This document shows positions 9,159-11,163 of a stretch of 32,000 bases of DNA, piece by piece. Positions within the stretch are counted from its first letter, which is position 1. The number at the start of each line of letters is the position of its first letter. Below the pieces are notes generated by a model. That model was given only the letters and a program-made list of their open reading frames with translations, ran no database searches and was not told the DNA's origin. This DNA is from Candidatus Saccharimonadota bacterium (GTDB lineage: Bacteria > Patescibacteriota > Saccharimonadia > Saccharimonadales > UBA4665), in the NCBI GenBank assembly GCA_003516025.1, contig CP023991.1, positions 120,001 to 152,000 of the forward strand, written 5' to 3'. Made by a program: the position numbers and the translations under genes.

Positions 9159-10520
9159 TTACTTCCAAATTGTATCCTCATGAGTGTTCATAGCAAAGAC
9201 GTATTCATTGGGTGGCAGCTTCCCGGACACGACCAGCCTACGATGAGCTTCTATCGGAGCAATAACGGTTTCGGCGCTCAAGAACTCATGACCTATCCGA
9301 GTGAGAAACTCTGCACCGTGATAAACCACGTAACCGGTGGCATTATGCTGTAGTTTGACGAAGTGTTCTTTATGCGAAATCTCGCGAAATAGATCTCGAC
9401 CCCCGAATCGCCTGTCCATTTTTTCGTATTCGTCGGGGATGTCTAGGGTAAGAGTCCAGCCCAGCGCTCGAAGCGCCTTTTTAAGCGGTTCAATGTATAG
9501 CTCCGCAAAAAGGTATAGCTCACCCGTAATTAAGTCGACACGGTCATCAATCTTGTAAGGGTAAACGCTATATGGAGCTCTCCCGCGAACGGCCTGGCCA
9601 CCTAACTTGATGGATAGATTATCCAAGTTCGAAAATGGCATTGCCAAGGTATCATTTTTTCGCTGTGACCTGTCCTGTAAGTCTTTCAGCTTTGCTTTGT
9701 TGATTTTATGCAAGTCAACTACGTCAACGTACAGGTAGGGTGCGAGTAACTTTCCGGCGAAACCATCATTCCTAGCCTTATTAATAATTTTCTGCACACC
9801 GTAGTGGAAATGTTGCACCGGTAATTTGAAACGTATTACGCGAGCTGTTGTTGCGCCAGATTGAATAATCTCACTGCTTAGCATGTCCTGTGCTTGCAGC
9901 AATCGGCTCTTCTGGTCAGTAATCAACTGACCATTGGAAAGCTGCTTAGCAATCGAAACCGGCGTGTGAAGTTTCTTATTTTTTACCTCAGCAAGGTAAG
10001 GCATGTCGCCAATGTGCCGCAGGATACTTACATCACCTACGAGCAGACAGTTAGTTATGTCATGCAGTAAAGCAAAGCCGCCATTCCTTGTAACGGTTTG
10101 GGCAAGCTTTAATTCCGCATTGCGTCCCGCTTTCGAACCCTCACTCGGTGTGGCAATTAGGCCTGGTGTGTCGGACTGGGCAATAATGCGCAGCCTGACC
10201 CTGTCGTTGCCCAGAGTTCTATACGCAAAGCCGTCTGCGATTTCACGATAAGAACTGGCAATTAACTTGTTTTTATCTGCCTGCTCGGTATACGATTCGT
10301 CATTTTTCTCTTTTGCTAGTTTACGCCCTTGAGTAATGAGCGGCTCCACATTTTCGAGTATGGTCAATATGGCTTTTTGGCATTCCAGGTGGGCGATCGG
10401 GTCTGTCATGAAACCTTTTTCAGCGGTCATGGCCATAACTTCCTTGAGGTGGCCATTGTATTCTCTGTAATTCCCACCGCTAATCAGCTTCATTATGTAT
10501 TTGTATCGTTCTAAATCCAT
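9159..10520 (-). CDS. unknown 453-aa soluble protein with PD-(D/E)xK-like nuclease motif
   Basis: Residues 154-180 read LLHDITNCLLVGDVSILRHIGDMPYLAEVKNKK, giving D163, then 14 aa, then E178-V-K180. Each element follows a hydrophobic strand. The rest of the protein is unrecognised. Confidence 0.6.
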   Translation of the reverse strand: MDLERYKYIMKLISGGNYREYNGHLKEVMAMTAEKGFMTDPIAHLECQKAILTILENVEPLITQGRKLAKEKNDESYTEQADKNKLIASSYREIADGFAYRTLGNDRVRLRIIAQSDTPGLIATPSEGSKAGRNAELKLAQTVTRNGGFALLHDITNCLLVGDVSILRHIGDMPYLAEVKNKKLHTPVSIAKQLSNGQLITDQKSRLLQAQDMLSSEIIQSGATTARVIRFKLPVQHFHYGVQKIINKARNDGFAGKLLAPYLYVDVVDLHKINKAKLKDLQDRSQRKNDTLAMPFSNLDNLSIKLGGQAVRGRAPYSVYPYKIDDRVDLITGELYLFAELYIEPLKKALRALGWTLTLDIPDEYEKMDRRFGGRDLFREISHKEHFVKLQHNATGYVVYHGAEFLTRIGHEFLSAETVIAPIEAHRRLVVSGKLPPNEYVFAMNTHEDTIWK

Positions 10521-10565
10521 ACAATAATTATAGCTCGTTGCAAGGACTCAATGTATTGGTAATGG

Positions 10566-10982
10566 TTATTCCGTCGTTAGTACTGGTGGCTCTGGTAGGG
10601 CGGGAAGAGATTGTCGGGTCTTTTCGGCTTCAGCAGCGGCACGGTCTGCATCCGCCTGAGATACACTCAACCAAGCACCCATTGTGAGCCCATAGGCGAC
10701 TAGAATTAGTAGTATTGGCTTCGTAATTCGCCACCAAAGCTTAGACTTAGGTTTGCCTGTGCGACGACGAATATAATAATTTGTAGCTAACACCGTAACT
10801 ATAAGCAGACCGATACTGGTAAAAGGGAAGATGGGATAGAGCCACTGGTGAGTGGCATTCTCGAGGAGTGTTATACCCCCTTGAACGCCAAGGTTTGCTA
10901 ATAAAAAAATACCGAACGCTGCACTATAAACTTTGACCTTATTAACTGTTGGCCTTGTGTCTGGGGTGATGTCGTCCGCCAT
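10566..10982 (-). CDS. unknown small 3-TM membrane protein with Ala/Pro-rich C-terminal tail
   Basis: Three hydrophobic helices. A strong GGAGGAG lies 5 nt upstream of the ATG. It is the first gene of the minus-strand trio. Confidence 0.55.
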   Translation of the reverse strand: MADDITPDTRPTVNKVKVYSAAFGIFLLANLGVQGGITLLENATHQWLYPIFPFTSIGLLIVTVLATNYYIRRRTGKPKSKLWWRITKPILLILVAYGLTMGAWLSVSQADADRAAAEAEKTRQSLPALPEPPVLTTE

Positions 10983-11020
10983 AGCAGCTCCTCCATTATG
11001 TTGGTAATGGGGAGGCCTAA

Positions 11021-11163
11021 ATAAAAAAGGACAACCCCTCTAGATTGTCTAGACCAACACAGGTTGTACCCTGTGCTTTCGAGAGGTTGCCCTTTTTGGG
11101 TACAACCAATCGAAGATTGGCTCGTTTACAAGCTGTGCTGATCTAGACCTCATAATCATAGCA
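11021..11163 (-). promoter_or_regulatory. candidate promoter (TGCTATGAT) plus structured 5' leader with intrinsic-terminator-like hairpin upstream of the trio
   Basis: On the minus strand an extended -10 TGCTATGAT sits at complement(11155-11163). A 12-bp stem GGGCAACCTCTC/GAGGGGTTGTCC (11081-11092 with 11029-11040) is followed by TTTTTTAT. It ends about 40 nt before the SD and ATG at 10982. Confidence 0.45.

Follow-up and report, generated by a model that had tools for sequence, protein, structure and literature searches.

The leader described here is one member of a family of folded 5′ RNAs that is widespread in Saccharibacteria (TM7), extends to other Patescibacteria and has so far no entry in the catalogues. 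At least 94 distinct sequences share its architecture, and their helices are preserved by compensatory changes. Judging from these sequences, the leader probably acts in cis as a self-contained transcription attenuator, a reading to which we assign a probability of about 55%. Where transcription starts and ends, and how far it reads through, are predictions from the sequence.

The leader and its locus

The window, meaning the whole 32,000-nt stretch analysed, comes from a complete genome of about 1.0 Mb. The leader lies on the minus strand in a 486-bp gap between the gene of a 138-aa membrane protein (minus strand) and a MerR-family gene (plus strand). The surroundings are an AT-richer stretch with a gene for a large serine recombinase and a tRNA at its end. 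A sequence-only reading had described here a minus-strand leader with an extended −10 box, a terminator hairpin and an interleaved alternative pairing upstream of three genes, and had taken it for an attenuator or a riboswitch-like element. On a check of the sequence all of its minus-strand elements were found in place, and its interpretation is supported by the comparisons below. The real architecture is richer than that description, from which the 16-bp helix S1:S1′, a more canonical second terminator hairpin (A″:A′) and the local hairpin P2 (CACAGG/CCTGTG) were missing. The elements are collected in Table 1.

Table 1. Elements of the leader and its surroundings in the window (positions of the window; DNA or RNA letters as indicated by T or U)
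Element	Sequence	Position	Strand	Partner or remark	Basis
Extended −10 box (TGnTATGAT)	TGCTATGAT	11155..11163	minus		read in sequence
Further motif	GGTCTAGA	11149-11142	minus		read in sequence
S1, 5′-terminal RNA strand	GUCUAGAUCAGCACAG	11133..11148	minus	16 bp with 11062-11047	
hp0, variable hairpin	CCAAUC-UUC-GAUUGG	11106..11120	minus	at the S1/B junction	sequence and fold
B, 5′ strand of B:B′	GGTTGTACCC	11098..11107	minus	complementary to 11071-11062	
L1, conserved A-rich linker	AAAAA	11093..11097	minus	directly 5′ of A	anchored logo
A, distal partner of A′	GGGCAACCTCTC (RNA GGGCAACCUCUC)	11081..11092	minus	12 bp with 11040-11029	
P2, local hairpin	CACAGG-GUACAA-CCUGUG	11058..11075	minus	contains B′, overlaps 5′ half of S1′	
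B′	GGGTACAACC	11062-11071	minus	pairs with B	
S1′, 3′ strand of the 5′-terminal helix	ends in invariant UAGAC	11047..11062	minus		covariation
TCTAGA hairpin	TCTAGA-CAA-TCTAGA	11053-11039	minus		read in sequence
A″, 5′ strand of the compact terminator hairpin	GACAAUC	11043..11049	minus		terminator scan
A′, 3′ strand	GAGGGGTTGTCC (RNA GAGGGGUUGUCC)	11029..11040	minus	shared by A:A′ and A″:A′	
U-tract	TTTTTTAT / UUUUUUAUUU	11019..11028	minus	directly after A′	logo
SD-masking hairpin	CCUCCCCAUUA with UAAUGGAGGAG	10988..11015	minus	fold probability 0.80 (window)	
CCTCC	CCTCC	11015-11011	minus		read in sequence
SD	GGAGGAG	10994-10988	minus		read in sequence
Start codon	ATG	10982	minus		read in sequence
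First gene after the leader		10566..10982	minus	138-aa membrane protein without family match	

The 176-nt RNA of the window folds with −68.5 kcal/mol (z = −5.3), and none of 200 shuffled versions was equally stable. The plus strand likewise folds well (z = −4.1), so the strand is not fixed by folding energy alone. When folding begins at the predicted start site, the minimum-energy structure is a long rod made of S1:S1′ and B:B′. All 12 nt of A′ are engaged in the pairing with A (12 pairs, two of them G.U), and its positions 11036-11030 (GGTTGTC) also form the compact terminator stem with GACAATC at 11049-11043, as found by the terminator scan. The last three bases of S1′ (GAC, 11049-11047) are common to the 5′ strand of this terminator. 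Once A:A′ has formed, the linker L1 is able to pair with the U-tract in the predicted fold.

The claim that CCTCC may mask the ribosome-binding site holds in the window, where the masking hairpin has a pairing probability of 0.80; as a feature of the family it fails, since this probability exceeds 0.6 in only 19 of 93 loci. Masking is thus an optional add-on. For A, A′ and S1, a pairing with the region around the translation start gives at most a weak signal (mean z −0.8, −0.2 and +0.2, respectively).

The other claim that stood only in part is that all three genes need read-through of the terminator. Gene 2 has a TATAAT of its own (10532-10527) six bases 5′ of an ATG that lacks an SD, and it may be expressed independently as a leaderless mRNA. 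Judging by these motifs, a dependence on read-through is clear only for the 138-aa gene, the one gene which the leader would clearly govern. One leader followed by one small gene, as at this locus, is the pattern of the family. Homologues of the 138-aa protein follow the leader in only three loci (cluster 18), and the genes at other loci are unrelated to it.

Distribution, covariation and gene context of the family

How far does this leader extend beyond the window? A blastn search of the gap against relatives matched the element alone, with an identity of about 80%. The matches came from two other families and one congener, and the proteins downstream of them were unrelated. With a covariance model seeded with four sequences, 37 of 151 genomes of the order, from 35 of 121 genera, proved to carry between one and three copies. 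In a class-level sample 23 of 151 genomes carried it by the same model, other orders included, and outside the class it was found in four genomes of a phylum-wide sample of 151. A scan of 185,579 species genomes with an exact pattern yielded 100 stretches, such pattern-derived loci being biased towards GGGCA and GGNTGTCC; almost all were labelled Saccharibacteria, Saccharimonadales, Nanosynbacter, Microsaccharimonas or Patescibacteria. Among the carriers are genomes of the Nanosynbacter type and of oral taxon 352. Two IMG/VR viral contigs carry the motif, and blastn gave no similarity to deposited phages.

The sequence-only reading had not recognised the element, and comparison with Rfam 15 bears this out. 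At the gathering threshold the window gave only a tRNA elsewhere, and the leader region gave only noise at E values up to 10. No family matched 19 homologous loci at the gathering threshold, and nothing overlapped the element in 15 further loci at E up to 1. We found no description of this leader in the literature on riboswitches and structured RNAs of Saccharibacteria and Patescibacteria. Core motifs of self-cleaving ribozymes (hammerhead, HDV-like, twister) were not seen by eye, nor was there any Rfam match, and this candidate was rejected.

The promoter which had been proposed upstream of the leader is a fixed part of the family. In 90 distinct loci TGnTAtAAT stands at −15 to −7, counted from the RNA's invariant first G, with the −10 box exactly 6 nt before this G; no conserved −35 was present in these loci. 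From this canonical spacing we infer that transcription starts at the invariant G and that the RNA begins with GUCUA, so that G11148 is the predicted +1 in the window. An open frame runs through four leaders inspected by eye. A leader peptide was nevertheless rejected: no AUG follows the predicted start in the window or in locus L002, there is no SD, the frame differs at the 3′ end, and the two positions directly 5′ of the first G (−2 and −1) show no conservation.

The RNA's 5′ end forms S1:S1′, with a length of 16–20 bp in nearly all of 93 distinct parsed sequences. Its first five pairs are nearly invariant, while positions 6–17 show three to six pair types and are 80–100% canonical. In an alignment fitted to the covariance model, S1:S1′ together with B:B′ is 94.6% paired; sliding the partners lowers this to 28–40%. 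Double-sided changes occur in 24 of 25 pairs. The pairing of B with B′, which had been read as one half of the interleaved arrangement, therefore covaries across families. Helix 4 of the covariation table, which supports it, is 99.2% paired with double changes in all 8 pairs, and the variants UUGUAC/GUACAA, UUGAAC/GUUCAA and UUUGCACUC/GAGUGCAAA illustrate the compensation. Such changes are visible by eye both for B:B′ and for the new 5′ helix. Most members have a hairpin at the hp0 site, variable in sequence and length (mean z only −1.1). It is absent in the subfamily of L011, L015, L018 and L024; L018 (genome G069), which stands in the alignments, comes from an unpublished genome, and no claim depends on it alone. 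Two further pairings were discarded. A local B:A hairpin in the window (GGUUG...CAACC) is subfamily-specific, and a pairing between the 5′ end and the sequence 3′ of the U-tract, seen in a first fold, is not conserved (mean z = −0.21 in 90 loci).

For the other half of the interleaved arrangement, A:A′, the 3′ domains of 39 sequences were aligned with MAFFT without fitting to a model, and RNAalifold predicts the helix from this alignment. It is 99.1% paired in the plain MAFFT alignment, against 42–58% when slid, and both sides have changed in 84 cells; its third pair is a G.U in 92 of 94 sequences. The compact A″:A′ hairpin, of 7–9 bp in nearly all of 93 parsed sequences, is 96.3% paired against 33–55% slid, with 26 double changes. 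Its loop has 4 or 6 nt in 63 of 94 sequences, and one C then follows. After A′ the first four bases are T in 91–94 of 94 sequences and the next two in 80 and 69. A″:A′ thus has the short, G+C-containing stem, the loop of 3–8 nt and the direct U-tract of an intrinsic terminator, and the mean energy of the hairpin is −10.5 kcal/mol. Positions 9–12 of A′ covary with A only, and positions 4–8 covary with both A and A″, which shows that A:A′ and A″:A′ are maintained separately. Anchored tables of the pairs at each position give the same picture of the helices. Invariance among the unpaired positions is confined to the A-rich linkers L1 and L2; around L1, A occupies positions −5 to −2 in 60–90 of 94 sequences and U position −1 in 69.

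Over all helices we counted 405 G.U and only 20 A.C cells. This asymmetry, which had been noted for two pairs in the window and now extends to the family, places the structure in an RNA of the minus strand and excludes a repeat acting as DNA.

At nearly all loci a same-strand gene with an SD begins about 10–60 nt past the U-tract, as had been said of the terminator in the window. The element is always co-oriented with this gene, and at most 3 of 94 loci look orphaned or degenerate, with no downstream gene. The encoded proteins include DUF4352 and superinfection-exclusion types (phrog_4980), DUF805, DUF4190, DUF5067, Ltp lipoprotein and SHOCT proteins, a 56-aa 'moron' membrane protein (phrog_14499), an 81-aa Cys-rich protein without family, a 360-aa NucS-like protein that matches the defence candidates PDC-S11 and PDC-S18, orphan N6/N4 methylases, and many others without family. 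There is no pathway or transport theme among them: the genes behind the leader are accessory 'conflict' genes, often on mobile elements. At 18 loci a large serine recombinase is encoded within 3.5 kb, and ParB-methylase, small-terminase-like (TerS) and large-terminase (TerL) genes stand just upstream in 6–14 loci. Some loci are chromosomal, with LemA, M48 peptidase or D-Ala-D-Ala carboxypeptidase. Clustering of flanking ORFs from 94 loci gave no consistently adjacent regulator or partner gene. Where one genome has several copies, their helix sequences mostly differ, which fits action in cis; cross-talk in trans between the copies was rejected on this ground.

Mutually exclusive folds and the candidate mechanism

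Several of these helices exclude one another. GAC at 11049-11047 has two possible partners, the 5′-terminal GUC and the GUC within A′; A′ can be taken by A or by A″ but not by both; and P2 excludes B:B′ and the upper half of S1:S1′. As expected of an attenuator, the conserved S1:S1′ shares GAC with the terminator strand A″, and both helices covary. The P2 region is more stable than its shuffles (mean z −2.2; 58 of 94 sequences below −2). In folding by minimum energy, 92 of 94 sequences adopt the rod when the element is taken by itself, and 93 do so when only the nascent prefix is folded. Formation of the complete terminator costs 0.76 ± 0.70 kcal/mol relative to the intact rod base, and completion of the terminator is thus a built-in, isoenergetic 3-bp strand exchange with that base.

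The longer A:A′ pairing behaves differently. As a nested fold it is about 12–15 kcal/mol less stable than the rod, so that it must form kinetically, or once S1 has been lost or sequestered, or else in a pseudoknot beside the rod. With S1 blocked, A:A′ was the better fold in only 19 of 94 sequences. These calculations use nested folds, and coexistence of A:A′ with the rod as a pseudoknot is beyond their reach; from a rough estimate of distances, the linker lengths seem neither to require nor to exclude it. As the helices of A and A″ both abut the U-tract, a clean ON state is not obvious from the sequence, and here the attenuator reading is weakest.

We suggest the following attenuator. RNA polymerase would start at the G of GUCUAGA from the extended −10 promoter. 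The first 16–20 nt (S1) would pair with S1′ about 85 nt downstream, and B:B′ would stack on this helix across the junction, often with hp0, giving a long rod that buries the 5′ end and presents A in an A-rich apical loop. The compact terminator (A″:A′ and the U-tract) follows directly past the rod, with the ribosome-binding site 10–60 nt further on. Forming first during transcription, the rod would serve as a partial antiterminator which partly protects the GAC of the terminator. If P2 branched instead, GAC would be freed, A″ or A could close on A′, and termination would be efficient. The partition among these folds would then set the read-through into the downstream gene. Because no partner gene travels with the element, the trigger is presumably a universal cellular cue. 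The candidates range from the kinetics of transcription or the levels of NTPs through ions and a common metabolite to core factors such as NusA, NusG and RNases.

In a bolder version, which is speculative and in our opinion rather unlikely, the leader would represent a new riboswitch-like class of sensors on the mobile elements of Saccharibacteria. The strand displayed in the loop would capture the 3′ half of the terminator in a pseudoknot in response to a universal cue, for instance an ion, an alarmone, a nucleotide pool or how fast RNA polymerase moves. The conflict genes would then be state-dependent, with superinfection exclusion, the defence nuclease and methylases switched on only in a particular physiological state, for example during infection or attachment to the host bacterium.

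Do these features need a switch at all? The module might be constitutive and lack a sensor, the rod only stabilising the RNA by closing off its 5′ end and the terminator acting as a fixed leaky valve that holds the expression of potentially harmful accessory genes low, with a terminated RNA of about 125 nt as a by-product or a trans-acting small RNA. We consider this unlikely on balance, although the blunt helix that buries the 5′ end of nearly every member, the small number of conserved unpaired nucleotides and the heterogeneous, moron-type downstream genes agree with it, and the position of the A and A″ helices beside the U-tract suggests termination in any fold. What it leaves unexplained are three exclusive pairings, each kept by compensatory change, and the covariation of A:A′ at positions 9–12, outside the small terminator. 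A by-product or trans-acting RNA is further opposed by the rarity of gene-less elements (at most 3 of 94), and a shared trans target by the variation of helix sequences between copies in the same genome. A true riboswitch, where a small molecule or ion bound at the junction or in the apical loop (L1-A-L2 closed by B:B′) decides whether A is free to capture A′ and hence between termination and read-through, would suit the order of promoter, folded domain, terminator and SD. It would also suit the A-rich linkers flanking a loop-displayed strand with a 4-nt toehold on A′, the lack of a dedicated protein gene alongside, and the residence of members on host-hopping mobile elements, where a universal cue would be needed. 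We nevertheless find it doubtful: the controlled genes lack a coherent metabolic or transport theme, invariant unpaired nucleotides are very few, unlike in typical metabolite aptamers, the hp0 junction is variable and sometimes missing, and no Rfam aptamer resembles the leader.

The near invariance of the first five base pairs and of UAGACA, in spite of their place in a helix, could instead mean that the GUCUA/UAGACA end is recognised in trans, either by an antiterminator or another RNA-binding protein, comparable to lambda Q at PR′-tR′ or N at nut, or by an antisense RNA that sequesters S1, comparable to the replication control of pT181 and pIP501. In phage lambda the PR′ promoter has such an arrangement, with a short terminated promoter-proximal RNA upstream of phage genes. 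The layout of the leader is the same, many members sit on integrative or phage-like elements with a recombinase near 18 loci, and two IMG/VR contigs and the upstream ParB-methylase, TerS and TerL genes of 6–14 loci point in the same direction. Yet the invariance of GUC/GAC is already accounted for by the triple use of these bases, and no protein family is consistently adjacent. A conserved promoter for an antisense RNA was rejected on the finding that an antisense TGnTAnnnT occurs in only 12 of 93 loci and at scattered positions; the conserved G.U pairs, moreover, would become A.C mismatches in the hairpin of a countertranscript. Recognition in trans is therefore improbable in our judgement. 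An element acting as DNA, such as a MITE or a recombination site with S1 and S1′ as arms, is hardly credible. Its attraction lies in an inverted repeat of 16–20 bp with arms about 85 bp apart, present in several copies per genome, patchily distributed, and frequent on mobile islands and next to tRNA genes. But the arms covary rather than being conserved, their excess of G.U over A.C is not expected of DNA repeats, and the promoter before them, the terminator and SD after them and the orientation along the downstream gene are fixed.

Relation to known leaders and meaning for Saccharibacteria

Like the trp and pyr leaders, the T-box and riboswitch platforms, the element is a promoter-proximal leader with a terminator just before the ribosome-binding site. 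Its sequence and covariation show a further likeness to attenuators, as S1 shares nucleotides with the 5′ strand of the terminator and P2 is a possible anti-antiterminator. In contrast to known attenuators, the predicted antiterminator consists of the first nucleotides of the transcript and has no more than 3 nt in common with the terminator, with which it exchanges isoenergetically. A′ has a second, longer partner (A) displayed in a loop, and there is no leader peptide, tRNA-binding module or recognisable aptamer.

Two groups of mobile elements offer other parallels. In the rep attenuation of pT181, pIP501 and pAMbeta1, a 5′ 'pre-emptor' strand blocks the 5′ side of the terminator, and here too sequestering the 5′ strand would induce termination. 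The leader differs from these plasmids in having no conserved antisense promoter and in controlling accessory rather than replication genes, and the G.U pairs of its helices would be mismatches in an antisense RNA of the pT181 type. With lambdoid PR′/'6S', where Q brings about read-through, and with the HK022 put RNA it would share a constitutive promoter and a short terminated RNA before phage or mobile genes; as at PR′, expression would require read-through. Unlike the PR′ systems, it has no Q- or N-like gene and precedes single moron-type genes, not late operons, and the competing folds, present in the leader, have no counterpart at Q-dependent sites.

The nearest candidates by host or gene are the lysM-TM7 and DUF805 RNA motifs, candidate cis-regulatory leaders, both in Rfam, which were described from TM7 genomes or preceding DUF805 genes (Weinberg et al. 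2017, PMC5737381). DUF805 genes follow our leader in 3 loci. However, cmscan matched neither motif to the window or to 34 homologous loci, even at E values up to 1–10, and lysM genes are absent among the downstream genes of the leader.

Saccharibacteria are ultrasmall epibionts with few known regulators, and the control of their genes is almost uncharted. The leader family gives them a defined promoter, a predicted start site and a leader that may be switchable. About a quarter of the genera sampled have it, and oral genomes of the Nanosynbacter type are among the carriers, so it could be tested in the few cultivable strains. The attenuator design, in which a 5′ triplet would compete with the terminator for three bases and a loop displays a second partner, is one for which we found no described match. 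Expression-control parts are lacking for the genetics of Patescibacteria (PMC11665869), and the leader is a potential part of this kind. It also links scattered genes for surface proteins, superinfection exclusion, defence candidates and methylases on integrative or phage-like elements, which suggests that conflict genes in Saccharibacteria follow one common control logic.

Competing pairings in the leader RNA

In the window's subfamily, B, the 5′ strand of the B:B′ helix, can also pair locally with A, the distal partner of the terminator strand A′. The pairs GGUUG..CAACC and CCC..GGG close around an AAAAA loop, which adds a fourth hairpin to the competition; other subfamilies do not conserve it. 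In the 5′-terminal helix S1:S1′, two G of S1′ (in UGG before UCUAGAC) are conserved, and opposite them S1 carries either U or C, with U.G wobbles at positions 8-9 in 40-50 of the 94 distinct leader sequences.

Genes downstream of the leader

Within the trio of genes downstream of the window's leader, a TATAAT lies six bases 5′ of the ATG of the second gene, which codes for a 453-aa protein and has no SD before it. Judging from the sequence, genes 2 and 3 may be transcribed from a promoter of their own, as a leaderless mRNA.

In six loci the gene after the leader belongs to a family of 360-aa proteins whose N-terminus weakly resembles NucS. This family has no Pfam match; in PADLOC it matched PDC-S11 and PDC-S18, both defence candidates. 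A Cys-rich family of roughly 80 aa, with the pattern C..C ... AGSL.A.G.QAFAC, is found downstream of the leader in seven loci and has no match in Pfam, PHROG or NCBIfam. Its setting is chromosomal, 3′ of a D-Ala-D-Ala carboxypeptidase gene.

Features of the leader family and neighbouring genes
Feature	Location	Remark
Local B:A hairpin	window 11081-11107	minus
S1:S1′ positions 8-9	window 11141-11140 with 11054-11055	
TATAAT to ATG of the 453-aa gene	window 10520-10532	minus
453-aa gene	window 9159-10520	minus
360-aa NucS-like family	L100:6182-7261, L034:484-1563, L048, L099, L106	
Cys-rich family	L069:7401-7643, L037, L066, L077, L079, L083, L049	
Leader before the moron gene	L137:6445-6573	IMG/VR contig, 37,965 bp
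ParB-methylase/terminase block	L029:327-1709, L104:1409-1858, L047:3394-4707 and relatives	examples
tRNA gene	L151:363-436	

Phage-like surroundings and tRNA genes

One family member lies in a viral contig (L137), where the leader is predicted to drive a gene for a 56-aa "moron" membrane protein (phrog_14499). A 554-aa serine integrase gene is divergent from this unit, and a tyrosine integrase gene is also near the leader.

In 6-14 family loci, genes for a ParB-methylase, a small-terminase-like HTH protein and a large terminase lie on the same strand directly upstream of the leader promoter, at a distance of 6-60 nt. The arrangement has the appearance of a phage-like or island module that recurs in Saccharibacteria.

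At another locus a tRNA gene is located about 70 nt from the leader. This position, as in the tRNA-flanked island of the window, suggests that the element carrying the leader integrates at tRNA genes.
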